DNA from: Alphaproteobacteria bacterium
Lineage (GTDB): Bacteria; Pseudomonadota; Alphaproteobacteria; CALKHQ01
Length of the DNA: 64,000 nucleotides
Assembly (NCBI GenBank): GCA_965227515.1
Contig: CBDDFZ010000001.1
Coordinates: forward strand, 2,944,001-3,008,000
Direction of reading: 5' to 3'
Shown here: positions 5,154 through 24,186 of the stretch, piece after piece
How positions within the stretch are numbered: the first letter of the stretch is position 1
Layout of the letters: every line of letters begins with the position of its first letter
Position numbers and translations under genes: made by a program
The notes under the pieces: generated by a model
Database searches by the model: none
What the model was told of the DNA's origin: nothing
The model's input: only the letters and a program-made list of their open reading frames with translations

Positions 5154-6404
5154 CTAGCTGGCGTCTTCGAGAATCTGGGCCAGACGCTCCTGCGCTTCCT
5201 CGATCGAGAGGTCGCGGTTGAAGGAGAATTCGGCCCAAAGGTCGTCAAGCTGGCCGGCCGTGTCTTCGGTGAAGAAGTTGTTCTGCGCCGGGACGACGTT
5301 ATTGGGGTCGGACAGGATTTCCAGACCCAGCTTCATGCAGTCGTCAGCCAACTCAAGGTCGACGTCGGCGCGCACGGGCAGCGAGCCCTTGGCCAGGTTG
5401 AACAATGCCTGCACGCGCGGGCTGATCATCAGCGAGGCCAGCTCGAGCTGAGCGGCTTCGACTTCCGGATCGTCCTGCTTCGGGAACAGGAAGATGTCGC
5501 CGCCGGTGTCCAGATAGGCGTGGTCGGCGGGTCCGCCGGCCAGGCACTCGTAGTCGACGCCAGGCACCTCGCCGGCAATGGCGAATTCGCCGCGCGCCCA
5601 GTCGCCCATGATCTGCAGGGCTGCCTGGTCGGTGATGATGAGGTTGGTGGTGTCGTTCCAGTTCCGGTTGCCGGAACCGTCGTCGATGTAGGACGTCATC
5701 TCGCGCCAGATCTCAAGCGCGTGCGCGATTTCCGGGCCTTGCGCATATTCGAGGTCGCGGTCGCGGTAGAGGCGCAGATAGCCTTCGGATCCGATCTCGC
5801 TCAGGATCACGACGTCAAGCGCGCCGGAGTGCTGCCAGCTCTCGCCGCCGATGGCGAACGGGATGAAGCCGGCTTCCTGGATGGCCGGCGCGGCGGCCAG
5901 GAACTCGGTCAGGTTGTTCGGCATCTCGACGCCGGCCTGTTCGAACACCGGGATCGAGGCCCAGCCCCACTGCCACGAGTGAATATTGACCGGCACGCAC
6001 CAGACGCGGCCGTCCTTGATGCATGGATCGAGAATCTGCGACGGGCGCACGACATCGGCCCAACCCTCGGCCTCGGCGAGATCGGTCAGATCGAGCAACA
6101 GGCCGGCCTCGATCAGCTCTTCATACTGACGGCCGGGGTTGAACTGCGCGGCATCGGGCGGGTCGCCGCCCAGGGTACGCTGCATCATGGCGGCACGCGC
6201 GTTCGGCCCACCGGCGATCGCGGTGTCGACCCAGGTGTTGTCAGTGGTGTCGTTGAACTCGTTGGCGAACACGGACACAGCCGCCTGCTCGCCACCCGAC
6301 GTCCACCAGTGCATCACCTCAACCTCGGCGGCCATCGCCGGGGTGCCAGCCAGTGCCACCAGCGCGGTGGTCTGCAGCAAAGTCGCGCAATTCAGGCGTT
6401 TCAT
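5154..6404 (-). CDS. Sugar ABC transporter substrate-binding protein
   Basis: Signal peptide, EVMHWWTSGGE, QIMGDWARGEF motifs of glucose-type SBPs. Confidence 0.93.
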   Translation of the reverse strand: MKRLNCATLLQTTALVALAGTPAMAAEVEVMHWWTSGGEQAAVSVFANEFNDTTDNTWVDTAIAGGPNARAAMMQRTLGGDPPDAAQFNPGRQYEELIEAGLLLDLTDLAEAEGWADVVRPSQILDPCIKDGRVWCVPVNIHSWQWGWASIPVFEQAGVEMPNNLTEFLAAAPAIQEAGFIPFAIGGESWQHSGALDVVILSEIGSEGYLRLYRDRDLEYAQGPEIAHALEIWREMTSYIDDGSGNRNWNDTTNLIITDQAALQIMGDWARGEFAIAGEVPGVDYECLAGGPADHAYLDTGGDIFLFPKQDDPEVEAAQLELASLMISPRVQALFNLAKGSLPVRADVDLELADDCMKLGLEILSDPNNVVPAQNNFFTEDTAGQLDDLWAEFSFNRDLSIEEAQERLAQILEDAS

Positions 6405-6484
6405 TCGATAGTCCTCCCTGTTCTGGCCCGGTCATTTTGGGCCGTTCGATCTTTCCGGTCGTCCGATGTGGACGCCGGGGTTTT

Positions 6485-6496
6485 GTAATCGATTAC
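6485..6496. promoter_or_regulatory. LacI-type operator palindrome GTAATCGATTAC
   Basis: Perfect palindrome with central CG between the divergent SBP and LacI genes. Confidence 0.7.
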
Positions 6497-6598
6497 CTTG
6501 AGTGTATGCTCTTGGATTAGGCTGTCAATCCTTTCCGGTCGCGGTATCTGTGGTGCCGATGGGGCGGACAGCGACGATCGGAACGACGACTCTTGACG

Positions 6599-7660
6599 AT
6601 GGAAAGCATTGCTAAACGGCGGCGGACGTCGCGCGGGGGCGTGACGATTCATGACGTGGCCGGTCGTGCCGGAGTCTCCACGGCGACGGTCAGCCGCGCG
6701 CTGATGACCCCGGAGCGGGTGCGGCCGGCAACGCGCGAAGCGGTGCTGCGTGCCGTCGCCGACACCGGCTACACGCCGAACCAGGCCGCGCGGTCGCTGC
6801 GCGCGCGCAAGACCATGATGGCGATGGTCATCGTGCCCAACGTCGGCAACGCCTTCTTCGTCGAGGTGCTGCGCGGCATCGACGCCGCGTTGTCGGAGGC
6901 CGGCTATGGCCTGATCATCGGGCATCTGGACAATTCCCACGCCAAAGAGCGCCATTTCGTCGAGCTGGCGCTGGCCGGGCAGGTCGATGGCGTCCTGCTG
7001 CTGAACGGCTGGATGCCGGTGAAGGACAATCGGCCGCTGACCGATGCGGGCATGCCGATCGTGTCGGTCGGCACGTATGTCGACAATCCAGAAATTCCCA
7101 AGATCATCGTGCGCAACCGCGAGGCATCGCAAGCCATTGCCGAGCACCTGATCGGTCTCGGCCACACCAGACTCGGCTACATTTCAGGTCCGCCGGGCAA
7201 CTGGGTCGACGGGCAGCGTTGGCAGGGGTTCAGCGAAGCAGTCGCGGCGGCGGGGCTGGACCCCGGCAGCATCCTGCGCTGGGGCGGACGGTTCGATTTC
7301 CATACCGGGGTCGCGGCGGCCGAGGCGTTCCTGAACGCGGCCCGCCGGCCGACCGCCGTGTTCGCCGCTAGCGACGAGATCGCCATCGGGTTCACAAAGC
7401 GGCTGCGCGCCGCGGACCTGGCCGTACCGCGCGATGTCTCGGTGGTCGGGTTCGACGGCATTGCCTTCGCCGAATTCTGCGAGCCGACGCTCACGACCAT
7501 TCTTCAGCCGCGGTTCGAGCTGGGGCGGGCGGGGGCCGCGGTGCTGTTGCGCATGCTGGAGGACCCGAACCACCGCCCGGACACCTGGACGTCGCTGGAT
7601 GCCGAGCTGGTGTGCCGCGAAAGCACCGCGCCGCCGCCGCCGTCGCAAAGCCACGCGTAG
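6599..7660 (+). CDS. LacI family transcriptional regulator
   Basis: VTIHDVAGRAGVSTATVSRAL HTH; VSVVGFDG..PTLTTI. Confidence 0.95.
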   Translation: MESIAKRRRTSRGGVTIHDVAGRAGVSTATVSRALMTPERVRPATREAVLRAVADTGYTPNQAARSLRARKTMMAMVIVPNVGNAFFVEVLRGIDAALSEAGYGLIIGHLDNSHAKERHFVELALAGQVDGVLLLNGWMPVKDNRPLTDAGMPIVSVGTYVDNPEIPKIIVRNREASQAIAEHLIGLGHTRLGYISGPPGNWVDGQRWQGFSEAVAAAGLDPGSILRWGGRFDFHTGVAAAEAFLNAARRPTAVFAASDEIAIGFTKRLRAADLAVPRDVSVVGFDGIAFAEFCEPTLTTILQPRFELGRAGAAVLLRMLEDPNHRPDTWTSLDAELVCRESTAPPPPSQSHA

Positions 7661-7698
7661 GAGATGTTCCGGACGGCCACGCTAACTGATCAAATAAA

Positions 7699-7734
7699 GA
7701 ACATATTGACAACAATCACCTTGGCTGATATGGT
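7699..7734 (+). promoter_or_regulatory. Sigma70-like promoter overlapped by a LexA-type box
   Basis: TTGACA (7706-7711) - 17 nt - TATGGT (7729-7734); GAAC-ATATTGA-CAAC (7699-7713) covers the -35. Confidence 0.7.
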
Positions 7735-7860
7735 GCGTCTACAGTCAAAGTAGACTGTTCCTTCCGGCCAAGCCGCTGCATCGATCGTTGATCCGGCGGC
7801 CCCGGACGACCGCGGGAAAGACCGCCGGCAAACGGTGCCCGTCAGCGCCGAGGAAACGGC

Positions 7861-8015
7861 CCGCCGGCCGGCCCGCGCAGATCGCGCGCTCCCAACACGC
7901 CAACTTGCCTGCCGCCCTCCCTCGGGCGGGCCTTGGCGTGCCAGCGCGCTGGTTTTGTTTCTGGGGCGCAGACTCAGCCTTAGCGTCCAACAAGAAACTG
8001 CGTGCCGGCCGGCGG
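7861..8015 (+). ncRNA. Candidate structured 5' leader RNA of the capsid gene
   Basis: Nested complementarity: 7861-7872/8004-8015 (12 bp perfect), 7884-7890/7943-7949, 7896-7903/7933-7940, 7912-7917/7924-7929, 7957-7962/7993-7998. Confidence 0.5.
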
Positions 8016-8060
8016 TCAACCGCTCCGCGCCTTCATCAACCAACTGAAGGAGACGTGGAA

Positions 8061-8948
8061 GTGTCTTTCGAAATCTCGACTTCGCATTCGCTGGACTACG
8101 GCGGCGCGGTTGCGCTCCGCCTGCAGCAGCGCGGGTCCAAGCTGCGCCCGACGGTGGAGGAGTCCGCCTTCAGGGGCAAGGCGGCGCGCGCTGTCGACCA
8201 GGTGGGCCCGGTCTCGGCGCAGAAGCGCACCACCCGCCACAGCGACACCCCGCTGATCAGCACGCCGCACTCGGCGCGCTGGATCTACCCCAACGACTAT
8301 GAGTGGGCGGACCTGATCGACGAGCAGGACAAGGTCCGCACCATCCACGAGCCGACCAACGCCTACACCGAGAACGGCGCCAATGCCCTGGGTCGCTCGA
8401 TGGACGATGAGATCATCACGGCGTTCTTCGGCACCGCCAAGACCGGCGAGAACGGCACCACCGACACCGCGTTCGACAGCGCCAACCAGACGGTGGCGGT
8501 CGACACCGGTGCCGGCGGCGCCACCGGCCTCAACGTCGCCAAGCTGCGCTATGCCAAGCGCATCCTGATGGCCAACGAGGTCGACGTCGACTACGAGCCG
8601 CTGTTCTGCGCCATCACCGCGCAGCAGCACGACGACCTGCTAAGCGAGACCCAGGCCATCAGCCTGGACTTCAACACCCGCCCGGTGCTGGTGGACGGCA
8701 AGATCTCCGCCTTCATGGGCTTCAACTTCGTCCATATCGAGCGCCTGCAGGTCGACGGCAGTTCCTATCGCCGCCTGCCGGTGTGGGGGCGCTCGGGCAT
8801 GCACCTGGGCGTGTGGGACGACATCGAGGGCAAGGTGACCGAGCGGGACGACAAGTCCTACTCCACCCAGGTCTATGTGCGCGGCACGTTCGGCGCGACG
8901 CGGACCGAGGAGGGCAAGGTCGTCGAAATCAAGTGTTCGGAAGCGTAG
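8061..8948 (+). CDS. Phage major capsid protein (podovirus type, HK97 fold)
   Basis: LQQRGSKLR, RHSDTP, ADLIDEQDKVR, GATRTEEGKVVEIKC motifs; AAGGAG RBS before GTG 8061. Confidence 0.9.
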   Translation: MSFEISTSHSLDYGGAVALRLQQRGSKLRPTVEESAFRGKAARAVDQVGPVSAQKRTTRHSDTPLISTPHSARWIYPNDYEWADLIDEQDKVRTIHEPTNAYTENGANALGRSMDDEIITAFFGTAKTGENGTTDTAFDSANQTVAVDTGAGGATGLNVAKLRYAKRILMANEVDVDYEPLFCAITAQQHDDLLSETQAISLDFNTRPVLVDGKISAFMGFNFVHIERLQVDGSSYRRLPVWGRSGMHLGVWDDIEGKVTERDDKSYSTQVYVRGTFGATRTEEGKVVEIKCSEA

Positions 8949-8959
8949 GGGGCTGAGCG

Positions 8960-9442
8960 ATGGCTGTGACCACACAACAGAGCACGCAACTGGCGCTGAC
9001 CGAGACCGAGCCGACCGATTTCAACCCCACCCACGAGTGGGCCGGGCGGCTGCGGTTCGCGCGCTTCGATTTCACCCAGTCCGGCGCCGGCGATGCCGGT
9101 TCGGTCGCCGAGCTGCTGACCCTGCCCGCCGGTAAGGTGCGGGTGGTGCTGCCGCTGAGCCGGATCGCGTTTTCCGCGCTCGGCGCCTCGCGCACCATGG
9201 ACTTCGGCTGGAAGGCCCATACCGGCGACGACGACGTCGCGGTGGCGGCCGACCCCAACGGCCTGGATGCCGCGGTCGACGTCTCCTCGGCCGGCTCGGT
9301 CAACCCCGGCGGCACTGTCGGCGGCGGCGAGACCTATCTGTTCGAGGCCAAGGCGGGCGTGACGCTCACCGCCACCATCAACGGCGGCACGTTCCCGGAC
9401 GCGGCGACGCTGAACGGCTACGTCGTCTACGTGGTCGACTGA
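8960..9442 (+). CDS. Probable capsid cement/decoration protein
   Basis: 160-aa beta-rich G/A/T protein directly after the capsid gene, ends YVVD. Confidence 0.6.
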   Translation: MAVTTQQSTQLALTETEPTDFNPTHEWAGRLRFARFDFTQSGAGDAGSVAELLTLPAGKVRVVLPLSRIAFSALGASRTMDFGWKAHTGDDDVAVAADPNGLDAAVDVSSAGSVNPGGTVGGGETYLFEAKAGVTLTATINGGTFPDAATLNGYVVYVVD

Positions 9443-9507
9443 ACGTAGATGGACGAGCGACACCTTTCCGGCTGCGCGGTAGGGGAGAAGTGGTAGCCGG
9501 GAAACGG

Positions 9508-9543
9508 GGCGGGCGTGGGCAGCGATGTCCGCGCCCGCCTTTT
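9508..9543 (+). terminator. Intrinsic terminator after capsid/cement genes
   Basis: GGCGGGCGTGGGCA-GCGA-TGTCCGCGCCCGCC hairpin followed by TTTT. Confidence 0.75.
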
Positions 9544-9557
9544 GTTCGCCATAGTTA

Positions 9558-9606
9558 GAACATAAGAGGAAAACAGATAGACAGAGGGTAGGTTGTATAA
9601 TAGTGT
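9558..9606 (+). promoter_or_regulatory. LexA-type box plus sigma70-like promoter for the lipoprotein/toxin cassette
   Basis: GAAC-ATAAGAG-GAAA (9558-9572); TAGACA (9578-9583) - 17 nt - TAGTGT (9601-9606). Confidence 0.55.
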
Positions 9607-9816
9607 CTCTGTATCATCCAATACGTGCATCTGGCATCAATTCCGTTTGCATCGACGCGCGTGCTTGTGGCGCTGGAACGGCGCACGGCCTCGCCCAGGG
9701 CGAGTACATTCCCGGCGATCATTCGCGGCCGCTCAACACGGATGCGAGCTGCCGACAGCGTCATGCCGCAACGCCCAATTTTGGAGAATTCAGCGACTGA
9801 CGACAGGCGTCTCAGA

Positions 9817-17822: not shown

Positions 17823-18791
17823 ATTAGCTCTACGCATAGCCGCGTCGGCTATGCCTGCGACGGGGCGACGACGGTGTTCAACGTCACGTTTCCGTTCTTC
17901 GATGGCGATGACCTGGAGGTCATCGAACGCGTCGCCGTCAGCGGCGCCGAAACGCTGAAGGCCAATGGCGCCGACTACGCCGTCACCGGCGGCGGTGGAT
18001 CGACCGGTACCGTTGTGGCGACGGCGGCGCCGGCATCTGGCCTGGAATGGCACGTGCGGCGCGTCACCGGGCGGTTGCAGCAGACCGACTACACGGCCAA
18101 TGACCCGTTCCCGGCGGAAACGCATGAGACCGCGCTCGACCGACTGACGGCCATCGCCCAGGAACTCGACGAGCAGGGCAGCCGCGCGCTGCGCTACCCG
18201 TCGACCGACAGCTCGTCCCTGTCCGCGGCGATCCCGAACAGCGTCGACCGCGCCAGCGCCTATCTGGCGTTCGATGCCAGCGGCGAGCCCATCGCGTCCA
18301 CCGGGCCGACCGGCGACAGTGCGATCCCGGTGTCGACCTACGCCGAGACGCTGTTGGACGATGCCGACGCCGCCACCGCGCGGGCAACGCTGGGCCTCGG
18401 CACGGCCGCGGTCGGCGATATCGGCACCGACGTCCAGGCCTACGACGCCGACACGCTGAAGGCGGACACCGACGACACCCTGACCGCCGGGTTCGCGGCC
18501 ACCGCCGAGGACCTGGGCACCATCACCACCGGCACGACGACGCTGGCATTCTCGAACAGCAACGTGAAGACGGCGCTCAACGGTGGCGCGCACACGCTGG
18601 CGCCGCCGTCGAGCGGCGAGGGCACGATCGTGCTGCAACTCACCAACAACGGCAGTGCCGGCGCGGTGACCGTGTCGGGTTTCACCGCCGTGACCGGCGA
18701 CAGCCTGACCACGACCGACGGCGACGACTTCCTGCTCTACGTCACCCGGGTCAACGGCTTCTCCCACCTGCATGCGGTGGCGCTGCAATGA
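17817..18791 (+). CDS. Tail fibre protein with T7 gp17-like N-terminal anchor
   Basis: Y..DG.TT.F..TFPF, Q.TDY.....FPAETHETALDRLT..AQEL, TLLDDADAATARATLGL. Confidence 0.88.
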   Translation: MTISSTHSRVGYACDGATTVFNVTFPFFDGDDLEVIERVAVSGAETLKANGADYAVTGGGGSTGTVVATAAPASGLEWHVRRVTGRLQQTDYTANDPFPAETHETALDRLTAIAQELDEQGSRALRYPSTDSSSLSAAIPNSVDRASAYLAFDASGEPIASTGPTGDSAIPVSTYAETLLDDADAATARATLGLGTAAVGDIGTDVQAYDADTLKADTDDTLTAGFAATAEDLGTITTGTTTLAFSNSNVKTALNGGAHTLAPPSSGEGTIVLQLTNNGSAGAVTVSGFTAVTGDSLTTTDGDDFLLYVTRVNGFSHLHAVALQ

Positions 18792-19570
18792 CCTTTCCGT
18801 TTCCAGTCCCACCGCCGGTGGCGGGGATCGTCACCGACGGCTTGGCGCTGCACCTGGATGCCGGCGATGCCGCGTCCTACGGCGGGTCGGGCCAGACGGT
18901 CACCGACCTGTCCGGTGCGGGCAACGACTTCTATCTGGGGTCGACCAGCGGTGTCGAAAGCGTCGATCCGGCCTTCAATGGGGTGGCCGGCGCCAAGAGC
19001 GGCAGCGAGTATTTCTCGACCGATGGCGGCGACCATATGGACCTGGCGGCAGCGCATTCCGGCGAATTCATCCGCGAGGTGGGGCGCAGCGACACGCCGA
19101 CAACCATCGAGCTGTGGGTCTACATGGCCACCAGCTCCAGCGAGCAGATGCTGTTCTCCAACAGCTACTCGGCCAGCGGGCCAGCGACGACCGGCATTCA
19201 GTTCTACTGGTTGTCCGGCGACGGGCTGCGCATGTCGACGGTCGGCAGCTCGACATCCAACACGCAAGACACGTCGGGCACGTTCTCGTTGGCGGCGTGG
19301 CACCAAATCGCCTGGGCCGGCCAGCTCGACGGGGCCACGACCTGCCGCTTCCTGGTCGATGGGGTGACCGACAGCACGTACACCAAGGCGGGCCTGTTCA
19401 CGGCGGGCGACAGCACCTATGTGCCCCGCCTGATGCGCCGCCAGGGCTCGCCGTTCTACGGCATGGAAAGCGGCGGCCGGCTGGCCATCGCGCGGATCTA
19501 CAGCCGCGTCCTGAGCGAGGCGGAACTGCAACGGAACTTCAACGCCCAGAAATCGAGGTTCGGCCTATGA
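18788..19570 (+). CDS. LamG/ConA-like lectin-fold virion protein (receptor-binding candidate)
   Basis: IVTDGLALHLDAGDAASY.GSG.T..DLSG.GN, TIELWV, ARIYSRVLSEAELQRNFNAQKSRFGL. Confidence 0.82.
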   Translation: MTFPFPVPPPVAGIVTDGLALHLDAGDAASYGGSGQTVTDLSGAGNDFYLGSTSGVESVDPAFNGVAGAKSGSEYFSTDGGDHMDLAAAHSGEFIREVGRSDTPTTIELWVYMATSSSEQMLFSNSYSASGPATTGIQFYWLSGDGLRMSTVGSSTSNTQDTSGTFSLAAWHQIAWAGQLDGATTCRFLVDGVTDSTYTKAGLFTAGDSTYVPRLMRRQGSPFYGMESGGRLAIARIYSRVLSEAELQRNFNAQKSRFGL

Positions 19571-19917
19571 CCGACTACATCGACCCCAACGACCCGACAG
19601 GCCGGCGCTACCCCGCCGGCGTGTCGCGGCAGAAGCTGCCGAATGGCGACACCTGCCTGACGCCGCTGGACGAGAATACCGCCATGACCGCCGGCCTGCT
19701 GCCGGTGGAAGAGGTGCGGCCCGCCCTGGCTGACGATGAGGAACTGGGCGACCCAACCCCGGAGGTGCGCGCCGACAAGGTGGTGCTGACCTACGCCAAG
19801 CGCCGCAGGTCCGCGACCGATCTGGCCGCCGAGGCCCGTGCGCGCCGCGACCTGCTGGCGGAGCTGGATGCGCTCGCCGCCCGCGTCGACGCATTGGAAA
19901 TTCAACTGCAACCCTAG
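19567..19917 (+). CDS. Hypothetical phage protein (fibre-associated)
   Basis: ATGA overlap; MTDYIDPND... 116 aa with C-terminal coiled coil. Confidence 0.65.
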   Translation: MTDYIDPNDPTGRRYPAGVSRQKLPNGDTCLTPLDENTAMTAGLLPVEEVRPALADDEELGDPTPEVRADKVVLTYAKRRRSATDLAAEARARRDLLAELDALAARVDALEIQLQP

Positions 19918-19927
19918 GAGATTTCAC

Positions 19928-20329
19928 ATGATCCGTTATCGCGCCGCCCTCGGGGCCCTCCCCTGGGCGGCTTTTTTGTTGGCGGTTTGGCTCGGCATGT
20001 CCCTGGTGGCGGCGCGGGCCGATGCCCAGGATTGCCGGTCGCCGATGGACATCGTGGCGGCGGCCGCCGCCGATGGCGTGGAGGTGGTCGTGCTCGACCC
20101 GGCGGCCTCCGCGACCGCCATGGCGGCCTACAACGCCATTCCCCCGGTCACCGCCTATGCCCATGACACGGTGGCCTACGCGCCGGTGATGACCCAGCGC
20201 GGTCCGGCCGTGGTGTGGATGTTCTTTGCCGATGGCTGTTTGGCCGCCCACGACATCCTGCCGGTCGGCCTGTCCGAACGGCTGTTCGACGCCATTGCCG
20301 GCGGCGGCGGGCAACCTGTCGGTGGTTGA
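19928..20329 (+). CDS. Hypothetical exported protein
   Basis: GGAG RBS, signal-peptide-like N-terminus ending ADA. Confidence 0.6.
   Translation: MIRYRAALGALPWAAFLLAVWLGMSLVAARADAQDCRSPMDIVAAAAADGVEVVVLDPAASATAMAAYNAIPPVTAYAHDTVAYAPVMTQRGPAVVWMFFADGCLAAHDILPVGLSERLFDAIAGGGGQPVGG
19943..19977 (+). terminator. Terminator-like hairpin inside the start of the 19928 ORF
   Basis: GCCGCCC...GGGCGGC stem followed by TTTTTT. Confidence 0.6.
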
Positions 20330-20347
20330 GCCGATTGCGGTGCCCCG

Positions 20348-20803
20348 ATGATCGACCAAGACCTTTCCAGGCGCCTCGATGCCATGGAGGCACGCCTGCG
20401 TCAGCCGGCGCCGCTGGCCCTCGACCGCAAGGTCTCCATCGGCGTGATCTTCGCGCTGATCGTGCAGGCGGCTCTCGGCGTCTGGTGGGCCAGCAAGCTC
20501 GACAGCCAGGTGACGGCCAACGCCGTCGCGGCCGCCGAGGCGCGCAATTTCACCATCGCCGAAGTGGCGCGCCTTGCCCAGATCATCGCCGACAACCGCG
20601 AGTGGCAGATCGAGCAGCGGGTGCGGGTGTGGGACCGCGTCAACGACCAGGGCCTCGCCATCGAACAGATGGGCCGCAACATGGCCACCCAACTCGCGAT
20701 GCTGGAGGGCGTGCGCGACGAGGTGCGCGAGACCAAGCGCTCGGTCGACCGGCTGGTGGAACGCCTGTTGGACCAGCGGGGCGGTTTCGCGCCGCCCGAA
20801 TGA
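20348..20803 (+). CDS. Single-TM coiled-coil protein of the lysis region
   Basis: LDRKVSIGVIFALIVQAALGVWWAS TM segment then coiled coil; precedes the endolysin. Confidence 0.65.
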   Translation: MIDQDLSRRLDAMEARLRQPAPLALDRKVSIGVIFALIVQAALGVWWASKLDSQVTANAVAAAEARNFTIAEVARLAQIIADNREWQIEQRVRVWDRVNDQGLAIEQMGRNMATQLAMLEGVRDEVRETKRSVDRLVERLLDQRGGFAPPE

Positions 20804-20819
20804 CAGGAGACTGTCTGAC

Positions 20820-21719
20820 ATGCACATCGACTCAGACGGCTGGATCGACGGGGCGACCCGCCGGCCCAGCCCGCACGTCGGCGGCGAGATAGAGCCGCTG
20901 ATCGTGGTCAACCACTGGACCGCCGGCGGCGGTGCCGACATCTCGGTCCAGGTGCTGGAGAACCGGGGCCTGTGCGCCCAGCTGGTCGGCCCGCGCGAGG
21001 GCGGGTTCATCCAGTGCGCGCCGCTACACCGCTTCGGCCACCACGCCGGGGTGTCGTCGTGGCGTGGCATGTCGAGCTGCAGCCGGTTCGCCATCGGCAT
21101 CGAGTGGGCGAACTGGGGGCCGCTGTTCTACGACGAGAAGCACGGTCAGTGGTTCACTGCCTATTTCAACGAGCGCACGGGCCTCAGCGTGCCCTACCAC
21201 GGCGCCGAGCCGGTGAAGGTGAAGGGCACCGGGGTGACGATCCAGCATCACGGCGGGCCCTGGCAGGCGGCCGACTGGTTCGAGCCGTTCTCGCCCTATC
21301 AGATCGAGACGGCGGAGGAGGCGCACCTGGCAATGGCCGCGCGCTATCCCTCGCTGGTCGAGGCGGTCGATCACGCCACCATCTGCCCCGGCCGCAAGGT
21401 CGATTGCATTCCCTGGCAGCCGATGATCGCCGGCTGGGGCCAGGCGTTCGCCGGCCGTGACCTGCAACAGAGGCCCAGCGTGGGGCCGGCGAGCGAGGCC
21501 GACCGCCCGCTGACCAACGCGCGCCGCGCGCAGGAGGCGCTGAACGCCCTAGGCCACCGCGGGCGCGACGGCAAGCCGCTGCTGCCCGACGGCATCATGG
21601 GGCCGCAGACCCACCACGCGATCCGCAGTTTCCAGATCGCCCAGGGCCTGCAGAAAACCGGGGTGCTCGACAGCGCAACCGTGCCGCTGCTGCTGCCGGA
21701 GGAACAGGCAGCGGCCTGA
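20820..21719 (+). CDS. Endolysin: N-acetylmuramoyl-L-alanine amidase with C-terminal peptidoglycan-binding domain
   Basis: NHWTAG, HHAGVSSW, AIGIEWAN, DH..I.PGRKVD; DGIMGPQT..AIRSFQ..QGL..TG. Confidence 0.9.
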   Translation: MHIDSDGWIDGATRRPSPHVGGEIEPLIVVNHWTAGGGADISVQVLENRGLCAQLVGPREGGFIQCAPLHRFGHHAGVSSWRGMSSCSRFAIGIEWANWGPLFYDEKHGQWFTAYFNERTGLSVPYHGAEPVKVKGTGVTIQHHGGPWQAADWFEPFSPYQIETAEEAHLAMAARYPSLVEAVDHATICPGRKVDCIPWQPMIAGWGQAFAGRDLQQRPSVGPASEADRPLTNARRAQEALNALGHRGRDGKPLLPDGIMGPQTHHAIRSFQIAQGLQKTGVLDSATVPLLLPEEQAAA

Positions 21720-21744
21720 CCGCCCCTCAATCCCTGACCTGACC

Positions 21745-21766
21745 GCCCGGCACCTGCCGGGTTTTT
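21745..21766 (+). terminator. Terminator-like hairpin between endolysin and holin-like gene
   Basis: GCCCGGCA-CC-TGCCGGGT followed by TTTT. Confidence 0.55.
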
Positions 21767-21787
21767 CATGCCTGAACGGAGGTGAGA

Positions 21788-21949
21788 ATGCAGCGATTCA
21801 ACAAGGCCACCGCGGCCGCCGTTGCCGGCGCCATCGGCGTCGTCATCGGTGCGGTCTTTCCGGAGATCGAGCCCGAGGTGGTCGCGGCCGGCACCACCAT
21901 CGTGACCGCACTGCTGGTCTACCTGGTGCCGAACCGGGAGGCGGCCTGA
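21788..21949 (+). CDS. 53-aa two-TM holin-like protein (not in ORF track)
   Basis: MQRFNKATAAAVAGAIGVVIGAVFPEIEPEVVAAGTTIVTALLVYLVPNREAA; GGAGGT RBS. Confidence 0.75.
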   Translation: MQRFNKATAAAVAGAIGVVIGAVFPEIEPEVVAAGTTIVTALLVYLVPNREAA

Positions 21950-22278
21950 TGCGCGCCGGCAGCATCGCATTGTCGGCGGCCGGCCTGCTGGCGCTCGCCG
22001 GCTGTGCCACCGCTGGCGGCCTGGCGCGGCAGAACGCGGGCCTGGAGATCGACCCGTTGCTGGCCTGCCGCGCCTATGGCGCCACCCTGGGCGTATTGGC
22101 CACCCTGCGCGCCGGCGACGCGCTGAGCGACCGCCAGATCGCCGCCGTCGACCGCTGGCGCCCCGTGCTCAACGACATCTGCGAGGGCGCGTCCGTCGAC
22201 ACCGCTTTCGACACCACCACTCTGCTCGAAGCCGGGCTTGCCACCCTCATCGCCATCGAAAAGGAGGCCACGCCATGA
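21949..22278 (+). CDS. Phage lipoprotein (spanin-like position)
   Basis: Lipobox LAG-C; TGATG coupling to the holin-like gene. Confidence 0.7.
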   Translation: MRAGSIALSAAGLLALAGCATAGGLARQNAGLEIDPLLACRAYGATLGVLATLRAGDALSDRQIAAVDRWRPVLNDICEGASVDTAFDTTTLLEAGLATLIAIEKEATP

Positions 22279-22445
22279 ACCCCGCCCACATCTATGCCGG
22301 CCTGCAAGTGATCGCCGAACTCAGCGACCTGCTCAGCGCCTACCAGGCCGGCGACATGACCGAGCAGGACCTGAAGCGCGAATGGAAATCGACGCTCAGG
22401 ACCATCGACAATGCCAACCGCTTATGGGAGGAGGCGGCCGGTTAG
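22275..22445 (+). CDS. 56-aa hypothetical protein (not in ORF track)
   Basis: AAGGAGG RBS, ATGA overlap; MNPAHIYAGLQVIAELSDLL...WEEAAG. Confidence 0.65.
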   Translation: MNPAHIYAGLQVIAELSDLLSAYQAGDMTEQDLKREWKSTLRTIDNANRLWEEAAG

Positions 22446-22515
22446 CCGAAGCCGTGCACCGGGCTGCGCCAAACGATTGCCTTTCGGGCCGCGTTTGCAC
22501 TAGGTTCCACCGCGT

Positions 22516-22592
<77 letters not shown>

Positions 22593-22602
22593 TCACTCAA
22601 TC

Positions 22603-23898
22603 TGTCCGACCCGGAGACATAGGTAACAGTTTGTACCTAAGACATGGGTGACAACCTCGTGCCGAACGGGCTGTCGAGTGTCTGCAGTGTTTTCTGCTCC
22701 AGGTCGATGTATCCGAGATCGTAGTGCATGAAGCTGACGAGCCATATGCCCTCGTCGACCTCTTTGATTCCCAGGCGCTGTCCGGCCATGACGGTTGAGA
22801 TGTTGATCTTCTTTCGGTGCAGGCACAGCCGCCCGCATGAGGTGACGACGACATCCCGGTCGTGGAACGGATAGTCGAGCTCGGTCAAGCCGCGATAGGG
22901 CTTGGCTGAGGGGGTGTAGACCTCTGCCGGGCACTTCATGGCGAGCGCCTCATGCGGGCGCTCGGTATTGAACTCGGCGACGAAGGCGTCGAAGCGGGCC
23001 TGCTGCTGTAGGATGTTGGCGCCGGCCGGCTTGGTGGTCTCCTTCTTCAGGGTCAGGTGCATGCGTTCATGGCGGCCGTTCTGCTGCGGATGGCCGGGTT
23101 TGATGCGCTCGATCGCGATCCCCAGCCTCAGCCACCAGACCGCGAGCCTGGAGAGGTTGTAGAGCCCGTTCGGACTGGCGAATGGCAGGCCGTTGTCGGA
23201 GCGCATCGCATCGGGCAGGCCGAACTCCTGGAACAGGCGCTCGAAGACCGGGAAGGCATGCGCCTCCTTGGTCGTCTCAAGGGCTTCGCAGCCCAGGATG
23301 AAGCGCGAGGCCTGGTCGGTCACCGTCAGGGGGTAACAATAGCGGCCGGTGCCGAGCTTGAACTCGCCCTTGAAGTCGGTGCACCACAGCGCATTGGGGA
23401 CATGGGCCGTCGACAGCGGCGTGCCCGCCGCCTTGTGGCGCCGGCGCCGGGCGCGCTGGACCAGGCCGTGGCGGTCGAGCACCGCATGCACCGTGCTCCT
23501 GGCGGGAATGCGCACGTCGCCGGCAAGACGGCGCACCAACACCTCCCGGATCTTGCGTGCGCCCCAGTGCGGCTTCTCTTTCTTCGTCGCGACGATCAGC
23601 CGCTCGACCGCGGCCGGCAGCTGGTTGGCGTAGCGCACCGGGCGGCGAGACCGGTCGCTCAGCGCATGCACACCCTCCGCCTGATACCGCTTGAAAATCT
23701 TGTAGCCGGTCTTCCGGGATATCCCGAAAGACCGACAAACCGCGCTCATGCTCTCGCCTTCCAGCAAACGGGCCACAAACCGCAGGCGTTCCTCCATAAC
23801 CGTACTCCGTCTCCACGGCATCAACACCCCCGGCCAAAAGGCCAAAAGTGTTACCCATGTCTCCGGTACGATCCGTCACCTATCTCTCCGACCGCTCA
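22603..23898 (-). mobile_element. IS481 family insertion sequence
   Basis: Imperfect IRs TGTCCGACCCGGAGACATAGGTAACA / CGTCACCTATCTCTCCGACCGCTCA with repeated sub-terminal sites; ATC on both flanks. Confidence 0.85.
22637..23821 (-). CDS. IS481 family DDE transposase
   Basis: MPW...VMEERLRFV HTH, WCTDFKG, RSDNG, PQQNGRHERMH. Confidence 0.93.
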   Translation of the reverse strand: MPWRRSTVMEERLRFVARLLEGESMSAVCRSFGISRKTGYKIFKRYQAEGVHALSDRSRRPVRYANQLPAAVERLIVATKKEKPHWGARKIREVLVRRLAGDVRIPARSTVHAVLDRHGLVQRARRRRHKAAGTPLSTAHVPNALWCTDFKGEFKLGTGRYCYPLTVTDQASRFILGCEALETTKEAHAFPVFERLFQEFGLPDAMRSDNGLPFASPNGLYNLSRLAVWWLRLGIAIERIKPGHPQQNGRHERMHLTLKKETTKPAGANILQQQARFDAFVAEFNTERPHEALAMKCPAEVYTPSAKPYRGLTELDYPFHDRDVVVTSCGRLCLHRKKINISTVMAGQRLGIKEVDEGIWLVSFMHYDLGYIDLEQKTLQTLDSPFGTRLSPMS

Positions 23899-24186
23899 AT
23901 CCCCCTTTGCTGCGGTTTGAAATGGCGACCGCGGCGTTCCCGTTCGAACATCGTCCGCAGCGAGGGCATAGCCTTCGGAGCACGCGAGGGGGTGCGCCCA
24001 CCTTGTGGGGTTTGTTGTGCCGCTGCCGTAGTAATCGGTCCATCTATAAGTATGTGTTAGCGCGAATAGTTCTCCCTTCGCGTTAACGTGGAAAAAAGAC
24101 CTCCTGAATAGTGTGCGGATATCGACCAGGTTGGCGGTCTGATGAATGGGGCAACCGCCAACATCCCCACCTGTCGGAGAGCTCCA

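Follow-up and report, generated by a model that had tools for sequence, protein, structure and literature searches.

Experimentally established gene transfer agents (GTAs), a class that is defined by what its members do, are few, and the accessible portions of the literature name the RcGTA-like agents, BaGTA of Bartonella, the Brachyspira agent BhGTA and, since 2026, FpGTA of Faecalibacterium prausnitzii. According to the open part of its description, FpGTA is encoded by two operons 125 kb apart and is likely to have a podovirus-like shape (Nat Commun 2026, PMC12946183). The same text places TerL, portal, scaffold and a TerS that has no obvious DNA-binding domain in one operon and tail, fibre and lysis genes in the other, reports particles, about 9 kb of packaged DNA and proteomics, and calls FpGTA the first GTA-like element of podovirus-like shape (PMC12946183). 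BaGTA, the type II agent, is outlined in the accessible text as a phage-like gene cluster that spans about 14 kb and includes TerL, portal, capsid and fibre, and type II is delimited there by homology to BaGTA TerL and capsid, encoded within 5 kb of each other. Here we analyse a 64-kb window (the whole stretch of DNA presented above, G000:C1:2944001-3008000) from an alphaproteobacterial genome (G000; 5.5 Mb, two contigs, GC about 66%) that contains a cluster of podophage-type capsid, tail, fibre and lysis genes, locus B below. On balance we favour the view that locus B is the capsid-tail-lysis half of a vertically kept, podophage-derived, GTA-like system at two loci, and our best reading is that this two-locus element is chromosomally fixed and traces back to a temperate podophage ancestor of the HTVC010P/RpY1 type. 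That a selected set of structural genes exists at two loci is much more certain than what this set does. An initial annotation of the window had proposed a particle that lacks DNA packaging and may carry protein, and had offered, as its fallback, membership in a GTA-like system whose parts lie at separate loci; it is the fallback that the sequences, by a somewhat favourable estimate, appear to fit.

Locus B comprises 21 open reading frames (ORFs) on one strand (8061-22445, +) between a LacI-family gene (6593-7660; Pfam LacI and Peripla_BP_3) and a tRNA-Pro(GGG) gene (22516-22592, +). Its proteins and those of locus A (below) were searched against Pfam, at curated cut-offs, and PHROGs, and orthologues were sought in the three other species genomes that, with the source, make up its order and family: a sister-genus genome (G001; 40 contigs) and two more (G002 and G003; about 350 and about 340 contigs). 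Of 20 cluster proteins, 11 had a match in PHROGs and nine did not (p160, three insert proteins, p218, p230, p163, p109 and p56). Capsid PF19821, Phage_nozzle, Laminin_G_3, Amidase_2 and PG_binding_1 exceeded the Pfam cut-offs, and three further families, Tube (phrog_394), T7_gp14 (phrog_418) and the T7 fibre N-terminus (phrog_1640), fell below them in Pfam and were strong in PHROGs. The capsid/short-tail/fibre/lysis cluster first annotated from the letters alone is thus real, and its gene list was essentially right.

The cluster begins with the major capsid protein gene (8061..8948, +; 295 aa, PF19821 E 2.7e-82, phrog_3437), which is single-copy in the genome and whose product is 80% identical to the G001 orthologue over 295 aa; the 295-column alignment with that orthologue and an upstream GGAG place its start at GTG 8061. 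Next stands p160 (8960..9442, +), for which the first label, cement-like, names a candidate role; it is a homologue of HTVC203P gp53 (phmmer 3.5e-18) that matches nothing in Pfam or PHROGs and is 71-73% identical in G001 and G003. Beyond a low-GC insert lie the genes for the gp11-like tail tubular protein A (tube A; 12137..12694, +; phrog_394 1e-61), which is 39% identical to RpY1 gp040, and for the 683-aa gp12-like tail tubular protein B or nozzle (tube B; 12766..14817, +; phrog_376 5.1e-210, PF25675 32.9 bits). They are followed by p145 (14829..15266, +; phrog_4177 1.1e-30), whose homologues RpY1 gp042 and HTVC203P gp49 (phmmer 1.5e-28) are annotated as acetyltransferase, and by a gp14-like internal virion protein (15301..15723, +; phrog_418 3.7e-15) of about 140 aa after its start was corrected from the translation. 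Finally, after p166, p218 and p230 (15784..17756, +), come a 324-aa tail fibre with a T7 gp17-type N-terminus (phrog_1640 1.1e-31 over residues 1-130) and a 260-aa LamG-domain distal protein (PF13385 6.1e-14), encoded together at 17817..19570 (+). The third-position GC (GC3) of most cluster ORFs is host-like, at 0.8-0.93.

The window cluster itself contains no gene for a portal, terminase, integrase or large internal protein. A tblastn search of the whole genome with 20 late proteins of Ralstonia phage RpY1 brought up a T7-type portal at C1:2635684-2637273 (+; 42.7% identity across 541 aa; PF12236 Head-tail_con, E 5e-129), the single match of its kind in the genome. It belongs to locus A (G000:C1:2632585-2638508, + strand), about 314 kb upstream of the window cluster on the same strand. 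Locus A consists, in order and all on the + strand, of a DUF6456 (GafA-family) protein (178 aa, 46 bits), a small-terminase-like ORF of 113 aa that matches residues 143-231 (44%) of a 260-aa G001 protein and does not have the N-terminal helix-turn-helix (HTH) of the latter, a TerL N-half (Terminase_6N), a TerL C-half (Terminase_6C), a 71-aa ORF, the portal, a Bbp19-like protein (Bbp19) and a scaffold (phrog_3742 3e-37). It is flanked by aldo/keto reductase and FMN reductase genes on one side and a prolyl oligopeptidase gene on the other. Between the scaffold stop in locus A and the capsid start in locus B the chromosome runs on for about 314 kb, ordinary in content and including three tRNA genes, and because of that distance the two halves cannot be packaged together. 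The absence of portal, terminase and integrase first noted for the cluster thus holds inside it and fails genome-wide for the portal and the terminase, both of which turned up elsewhere as had been recommended for checking. The gene first listed as scaffold-like matches a scaffold family only weakly (p166; PHROGs 6e-6, phmmer 3.6e-4), the strong scaffold match being that of locus A, and the proposal of no DNA packaging, with protein in place of DNA, is not supported in view of a portal, TerL, TerS-like gene and scaffold under purifying selection. An RTX calcium-binding-repeat protein gene (379 aa, L003:10526-11665, equivalent to G000:C1:2638526-2639665) starts 18 bp past the scaffold gene and is absent from the G001 locus.

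In architecture FpGTA is the closest case. It shares with the element described here podovirus-like particle genes in two distant operons (125 kb apart in FpGTA, about 314 kb here) and, as far as its published text is open, a TerS without obvious DNA-binding domain, comparable to the HTH-less TerS-like gene of locus A. It differs in its Firmicute host and in having the capsid gene in the packaging operon, whereas here the capsid accompanies the tail and lysis genes; the accessible part of the report mentions no GafA-type regulator. Particles, DNA and proteomics are on record for FpGTA, whereas the present element is known from its genes. FpGTA was the only podovirus-like GTA found in print in open-access text, and no description of a podophage-type GTA in Alphaproteobacteria was found in the open-access literature. 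BaGTA, compared by description only, is likewise an alphaproteobacterial phage-like cluster with TerL, portal, capsid and fibre genes; by the sizes listed in the accessible text it differs in a 448-aa TerL followed directly by a 621-aa portal.

The structural genes point to a particular group of phages. A gp8-type portal (PF12236, E 5e-129), a gp11/gp12-type tail tube and a gp17-type fibre N-terminus together constitute a podophage virion module of the T7-like/HTVC010P type; capsid, scaffold, portal and terminase are all present and no sheath, tube or baseplate family of tailocins or extracellular contractile injection systems was matched. Tube B matched proteins in 219 phage records, all below 60% identity (best 44.7%), and the nearest complete phages by this protein are HTVC010P-type pelagiphages (44.7% to HTVC203P) and the Ralstonia phages RpY1 (44.2%), C22 and DU_RP_II. 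The late genes of RpY1 run TerL, small protein, portal, scaffold, capsid, 143-aa protein, tube A, tube B, 140-aa protein, 161-aa protein, three large proteins, fibre and lysis genes, and our element shares with these podophages the order portal-scaffold-capsid-x-tubeA-tubeB-p145-gp14-like, then fibre and lysis, at identities of 54% for the capsid, 43% for the portal and 44-45% for tube B. It differs from them in that the TerL of locus A is of the Terminase_6 type and split, not theirs; in that its halves lie 314 kb apart and, in the source genome, are not accompanied by integrase, replication or repressor genes; and in the loss of the large internal trio. These proteins lie between the gp14-like gene and the fibre and measure 879/491/1069 aa in RpY1 and, in the same order, 964/490/856 aa in HTVC203P. 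In their place stand p166, p218 and p230 (166, 218 and 230 aa), which show no similarity to either trio and are conserved at 45-55% in all three relatives; p230 has three N-terminal transmembrane (TM) helices, and the look-alikes of p218 in the Atlas, treated throughout as leads only, are mostly viral hypothetical proteins of the same length. No gp15/gp16-like large ejection protein matched in either locus, in agreement with the first annotation of the cluster. The only homologue of the 1069-aa RpY1 protein in the genome is an 848-aa protein encoded by an integrative element that lies apart from both loci, at C1:1.758 Mb, so the check for such genes elsewhere came out negative for loci A and B and positive for that one element.

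The terminase requires separate consideration, as TerL is encoded by two adjacent genes in locus A (L003:5800-7249), in G001 (L024:6866-8489) and in one integrative element of the source genome (L004:6112-7685). We aligned these halves with an unsplit 482-aa relative from an Inquilinaceae metagenome-assembled genome (MAG); in Inquilinaceae relatives TerL is a single ORF of that length. In all aligned copies the split falls at the same column, just past a TFTPLLGMSxVVR block that we take to be the terminase C-motif; a second integrative element of the source genome has a TerL-C match of equal score. The blocks GNQLGKT and LDLVWYDEEP, presumably Walker A and Walker B, and LDFGWDHP in the nuclease region are conserved across the halves and the unsplit relative. 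Each C-half begins with its own Met at M(S/T)(R/K)HVT, and the junctions have three geometries: the second half lies in the +1 frame after a 1-nt gap, or the two genes overlap, either in ATGA or by 50 nt. We read the split TerL as a probable working two-piece enzyme, with decay as the alternative.

The sister-genus genome carries both modules on one contig, with gene order and strand as in the source and 43-80% protein identity, so synteny in a relative, which the initial annotation had asked after, holds. In locus A the identities are DUF6456 66%, TerL-N 71%, TerL-C 67%, portal 67%, Bbp19 70% and scaffold 43%, and in locus B capsid 80%, p160 71%, tube A 63%, tube B 67% and p145 to fibre 44-57%. 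The gap between scaffold and capsid in G001 is made up of 18.3 kb of host genes, whose 63-86% orthologues, placed by blastp against the ORF database of the source genome, lie at three places there, on both contigs. Tube B is present in all three relatives (67-70% identity), as is DUF6456, and TerL-C and capsid were each found in G001 and G003. Upstream of DUF6456 in G001 is a divergent repressor gene with HTH and Peptidase_S24 domains (CI/LexA-like), and none of 10 flanking ORFs tested there belongs to an integrase or replication family.

Ratios of nonsynonymous to synonymous change (dN/dS) were estimated by the Nei-Gojobori method (NG86), and the values are rough because NG86 underestimates (compresses) dS at GC3 near 0.9. 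Between the source genome and G001 they were 0.32 for capsid, 0.31 for TerL-N, 0.38 for TerL-C, 0.46 for portal and 0.50 for tube B, with p160 and DUF6456 within 0.31-0.50; higher values, 0.54-0.77, came from scaffold, Bbp19, tube A, fibre N-terminus, p166 and p230. Comparisons inside genus g2 gave 0.22 for capsid and 0.22-0.35 for tube B. Of nine host gene pairs used as controls, seven (62-85% identity) gave 0.19-0.51 and two poorly conserved ones (46-49%) gave 0.69-0.79. The proportion of synonymous differences (pS) was 0.34-0.51 in the nine host pairs versus 0.27-0.56 in the element genes. Though rough, dN/dS of the element is clearly not neutral, most genes lying at 0.2-0.65 and not near 1, the value that the first annotation had named as refuting, and its synonymous distance matches co-divergence with the host. 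Gene order kept in two genera, host-like pS and these ratios, in a sample of four genomes, all bespeak vertical inheritance under purifying selection. In sum, both halves exist, the key structural genes are single-copy, the ORFs are intact, GC3 is host-like and dN/dS is below 1 across two genera.

These values bear directly on the best-surviving alternative, which is that we are looking at a decaying cryptic prophage, cut in two by chromosomal rearrangements, whose genes are still readable and serve no host function. Such decay would account for the lack of integrase, replication and repressor genes beside either locus of the source genome, for a truncated TerS-like gene and a TerL in two ORFs, for the loss of the large internal proteins, for the foreign low-GC insert and IS481 element in and beside the cluster, and for those dN/dS values that reach 0.6-0.95. 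It sits poorly with the survival of more than 16 orthologous genes, all intact, in two genera so diverged that their host orthologues share only 62-85% identity, with dN/dS of 0.2-0.5 for capsid, terminase, portal and nozzle, with host-like GC3, and with a TerL split that is common to four copies, whose second halves have their own start codon and conserved motifs. We consider decay unlikely.

A second alternative arises from the integrative elements mentioned above. Two related elements of about 12 kb each (G000:C1:~1750600-1762700, or L004, and ~3329700-3341900) share 3.4 kb at 95.7% identity, and each carries an integrase, an AAA_25 primase/helicase-like gene, a TerS (phrog_51), a split TerL 60% identical to that of locus A, and an ORF of 848 or 961 aa. 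The 848-aa protein belongs to virion protein family phrog_684 (E 5.6e-161) and resembles the 1069-aa internal protein of RpY1. Both lack genes for capsid, portal and tail, which makes them look like satellites of the podophage lineage. The structural loci might then be resident helpers, exploited by or co-evolving with the two small elements, whose DNA would be what is really packaged and moved. In favour of this are the two elements themselves, at C1:~1.75 Mb and ~3.33 Mb, with their integrase, TerS, split TerL and virion-family ORF, and the fact that the genome's only capsid and portal genes lie in loci A and B. However, a TerL-C query found only the locus-A-type match in G001 and G003, and none in G002, while the structural genes are at least partly kept there, and host selection cannot favour the helper of a parasite. 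We regard this arrangement as quite improbable.

The third alternative, and the main idea of the initial annotation, is a DNA-free, lysis-released capsid/short-tail particle that carries protein or kills. What that annotation called a toxin cassette is the low-GC cargo (9625..12062, +; GC 0.37-0.55, four ORFs) between p160 and tube A. The cargo contains lipoprotein 1 (about 9817-10365, +; lipobox), a truncated 56-aa copy (10334-10504, +) of a 344-aa orphan gene, lipoprotein 2 (10501-11031, +; lipobox), which is a paralogue of the first, and the full orphan gene (11028-12062, +), whose product begins NENW.VEMGSYPIPGIGGGYAH. Each lipoprotein gene is thus followed by a copy of the orphan, one truncated and one full, and a 101-nt repeat (D1, 75%) lies within the cargo. 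None of the cargo proteins belongs to a family in Pfam, PHROGs or PADLOC, and the orphan has only one other relative (300 aa) in a collection of 5.8 billion proteins; its residues 1-215 contain no cysteine, as read from the translation. Its Atlas neighbours are unnamed clusters first and then, at 0.91-0.92, DUF3750, TseH-like and IcsB_M, the TseH-like one with a score of 0.92 and 143 shared features. The layout resembles an immunity/effector array, though no family match bears this out, and "toxin" is a lead only for these proteins. One relative's contig joins capsid-p160 to tubeA-tubeB with about 1.1 kb in place of the 2.6-kb cassette of the window, and in G001 the cargo is replaced by different sequence, from which it follows that the cargo is variable and no fixed part of the system. 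Between p160 and tube A, G001 carries another gene, of 139 aa, and after its fibre gene it has a low-GC (0.46-0.51) 377-aa ORF of its own (L017:12676-13809, -); each genus thus fills the element's cargo slots differently.

A DNA-free particle would agree with the lack of large ejection proteins, with the paired cargo lipoproteins and the orphan's TseH-like Atlas neighbours, and with an RTX-repeat protein encoded directly after the scaffold gene. Against it stand both terminase halves and the portal, present and under purifying selection, the replacement of the cassette in one close relative's contig and in G001, and the absence of the RTX gene from the G001 locus, and we hold it to be very doubtful. 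A still infectious temperate phage, for which every virion-building and lysis function except the large internal proteins can be named and for which G001 keeps a CI-like repressor, is scarcely credible with its halves about 314 kb apart, three tRNA genes between them and no integrase, replication genes or att repeats seen.

The borders of locus B speak to its fixation as well. The cluster ends at 22445, 70 bp before the tRNA gene as first annotated, and because it sits 5' of tRNA-Pro it does not represent canonical integration into a tRNA 3' end. No direct repeat of the att type brackets the cluster, and candidate att sites were rejected on this ground; a contiguous unit with integrase and att sites, as expected of an intact prophage, was not found. 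No integrase, replication or repressor gene was seen in or beside either locus of the source genome, annotated within a few kb, which agrees with a GTA in having no replication, integration or lysogeny module of its own; G001 retains its CI-like repressor. In contigs from public runs the LacI-leader and amidase-tRNA junctions are kept at about 95-97% identity, one contig covering the LacI end into the leader (6725-7950, 40 differences) and another the amidase to the tRNA (20830-22543, 85 differences). As these contigs span both junctions, close relatives share the cluster borders, and no complete prophage occupies the site on the public contigs compared; parts of the window that these contigs did not cover were left uninterpreted, and cluster-skipping joints with sides of 21-22 letters were disregarded. 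Just past tRNA-Pro, at 22637-23845 (-), is an IS481-family transposase gene, which is not a phage integrase; its depth in contigs of metagenome runs is far above that of its surroundings, and a degraded IS481-like copy lies beyond the tail module in G001 too.

The distal end of locus B (19928..22445, +) encodes a secreted protein with a signal peptide (p163) and the lysis cassette. The latter includes an Rz-like protein with TM and coiled-coil segments (p151; 20348-20803, +), recognized by sequence and hydropathy, an endolysin with amidase and peptidoglycan-binding domains (20820-21719, +; Amidase_2, PG_binding_1), a holin-like protein with two TM segments (p55; 21782-21949, +), recognized in the same way, a lipoprotein with a lipobox read from the sequence (p109; 21949-22278, +), and p56 (22275-22445, +).

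At the other end, the cluster had been thought to start 38 bp after the LacI stop; with the capsid start at GTG 8061 a 400-nt leader (7661-8060) instead precedes the first gene. It contains a sigma70-like promoter, TTGACA-17-TATGGT (7706..7734, +; 10/12 match, TG before the -10), 46 bp past the LacI stop and the best of the promoter-like sites in 16 kb (5 observed versus 2.6 expected). Downstream are a conserved element (7755..7859, +) with the core TTCCGGnCAAGCC ... GGAAAGACCGCCGG ... GCCGAGG, common to G001 and the Inquilinaceae MAG loci, and, between promoter and capsid gene, a terminator-like hairpin with a T-run (7933..7962, +; hairpin 7933-7952). The Inquilinaceae loci have a GC hairpin and TTCGTTTT directly before the capsid start, and further terminator-like sites occur in the window at 12079 and 21745. 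A structured leader RNA found no support: RNAalifold on six leaders gave 12 pairs, 2 of them compensatory, with a covariation term of -0.05, and Rfam over 6000-24000 at E<=1 matched the tRNA alone. The 13-nt core motif has three sites in the genome versus about 1.3 expected by our own estimate, the other two, one inside an ORF and one without a phage-like gene nearby, being chance sites; neither the 29-nt promoter nor the 67-nt leader core has a second genome copy at up to 8 and 22 mismatches, respectively, and the motif was rejected as a marker of a regulon shared by loci A and B.

With its near-consensus promoter, conserved stretch and terminator-like hairpin, the leader resembles an antitermination-controlled late promoter. 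The source genome has a single DUF6456 gene, that which heads locus A. GafA homologues are annotated as DUF6456 in the accessible sources, where GafA is the direct activator of RcGTA and the related Caulobacter GafZ acts as an antiterminator, enabling RNA polymerase to read past terminators within the GTA cluster. The presence of DUF6456 is not proof of GTA status. No useful match came from PDB sequence searches with the DUF6456 protein or with the first 156 aa of the reductase ORF upstream of it. Terminator readthrough of the same kind is brought about by lambda Q.

Under the two-locus, GTA-like reading that we favour, a host or stress signal would cause the DUF6456 protein to turn on the late operons, perhaps by letting RNA polymerase from the promoter at 7706 pass the terminator at 7933 and the later terminator-like sites, like GafZ or lambda Q. 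Procapsids would assemble on the portal, and the split terminase and HTH-less TerS would fill the heads with any DNA available. After addition of the gp11/gp12 tail and the fibres, the producer would be lysed through its holin, amidase and spanin-like genes. Because such a terminase would fill heads with any DNA and lysis would release them, the particles would act like a gene transfer agent. Delivery by RcGTA stops at the periplasm and depends on host uptake genes, and as the large gp15/gp16-type ejection proteins are missing here, delivery may also end at the periplasm and need such genes.

Similar clusters occur elsewhere in the class. A scan with a capsid pattern returned eight loci, several of them in Inquilinaceae MAGs. 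Two complete Inquilinaceae MAG chromosomes (G041 and G042), whose clusters have collinear genomic context, carry DUF6456, about 6 kb, TerL, about 3 kb, portal, then 4-15 kb, Bbp19, scaffold, capsid, tube A, tube B, a 133-aa protein and fibre; ten unassigned ORFs of G041 gave only Sel1 repeats in Pfam. Cluster dN/dS there was 0.09-0.19 versus 0.09-0.16 for two flanking genes, a third flanking gene and p185 having been dropped for unusable alignments with stops. The portal-capsid distance is about 2 to 22 kb in five such genomes. A 2.0-Mb single-contig genome (G017; 41% GC in the fetched stretch) has a 15-kb cluster in which DUF6456, TerL and portal are followed by a GP7-type capsid, the two tail tube proteins A and B, a 167-aa protein, fibre and a DUF4376 protein. 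A LexA-DNA-binding-like gene (below cut-off) lies divergent upstream, and host-type genes stand on both sides, upstream those for ETF-QO, a GHMP-family kinase and a CarD-domain protein and downstream that for quinolinate phosphoribosyltransferase. The theme common to these clusters is a DUF6456 head, the absence of large internal proteins and a position between host genes. In a 16-row tree of tube B the elements of the source family (f1) pair with phage RpY1 as their sister (97/98), apart from the Inquilinaceae elements, which group with two other genomes (100/99); G017 forms a long, unsure branch.

Among 401 sampled alphaproteobacterial genomes, PF12236 portals are present in 116 (mostly in one copy) and DUF6456 in 81. 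Both families occur in 14 genomes, and in 5 of the 14 they lie within 20 kb on one strand (G000, G001, G017, G364 and G333, the last counted on a sub-threshold DUF6456 match). G364 was not used as an additional case, its contig ending just past the portal, nor was G333, which has TerL, portal and scaffold beside RTX arrays and no matching capsid or tail; the RTX-repeat gene arrays of G333 lie just upstream of that set. Strong DUF6456 matches (E 1e-31 to 1e-59) are mostly open frames of about 250-430 aa, with three of 159-186 aa, and weak ones (about 1e-8 to 1e-14) are mostly of about 140-270 aa; the latter are the group that adjoins portals.

With these comparisons in hand, several points weigh against a vertically kept, GTA-like system. 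The family and order comprise only four genomes, two of them fragmented; the portal was not found in G002 and G003, nor capsid and TerL-C in G002, which is weak evidence since it is these two assemblies that are fragmented. A single ancestral split is a parsimony argument, because the flanks of the loci are not shared between the source genome and G001. On the tail side dN/dS is relaxed, with tube A at 0.60-0.65, p166 up to 0.77 and the gp14-like gene up to 0.95 (58-70 codons), and the split terminase and HTH-less TerS could equally be steps of decay. The small-protein set may also occur in true phages, given that p218 look-alikes are mostly viral; the short DUF6456 may be the ordinary late regulator of the phage lineage, since it lies beside T7-type portals in 5 of 14 genomes; and the similar clusters do not represent one old domestication, because the tube-B tree places the f1 elements with RpY1. 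Co-regulation of the loci can only be presumed, as no promoter or leader motif is common to A and B, and the element itself is so far a set of genes.

The similar clusters also invite a broader and decidedly tentative suggestion. Several alphaproteobacterial lineages that lack RcGTA (the source family, Inquilinaceae and that of G017) might possess a second, convergently domesticated kind of GTA, consisting of compact, host-flanked, podophage-derived sets with a short GafA-family (DUF6456) head and no gp15/gp16-type ejection proteins, which would be switched by antitermination and deliver DNA only to the periplasm for ComEC-type uptake, the two integrase-terminase elements of the source genome riding in its particles as satellites. 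The GTA_TIM domain (the g15 domain, PF13547), the hallmark of RcGTA and of type I, was found in none of five genomes including the source, and a Caulobacter control was positive. ComEC (PF03772) was rejected as a discriminating marker; it is present in 5 of 5 genomes and also in 10 of 14 controls. The resemblance to RcGTA and CcGTA lies in a multi-locus, host-kept, lysis-released logic, in the association with a DUF6456 (GafA-family) protein and in a promoter followed by terminators, which suggests antitermination as the accessible sources give it for GafZ. The structural genes are unrelated, and DUF6456 is short here (178 aa, 46 bits) versus mostly longer GafA-type frames. RcGTA itself is siphovirus-like.

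As to method, the packaging gap of a 64-kb window was closed by a search of the whole genome. If DNA-filled particles are made, the two-locus element would show that a T7-portal/HTVC010P-type podophage was domesticated independently within the Alphaproteobacteria, would tie the GafA/DUF6456 family to a second, unrelated particle type, and would provide a natural case of a two-polypeptide terminase and of a short-tailed particle without an ejectosome.

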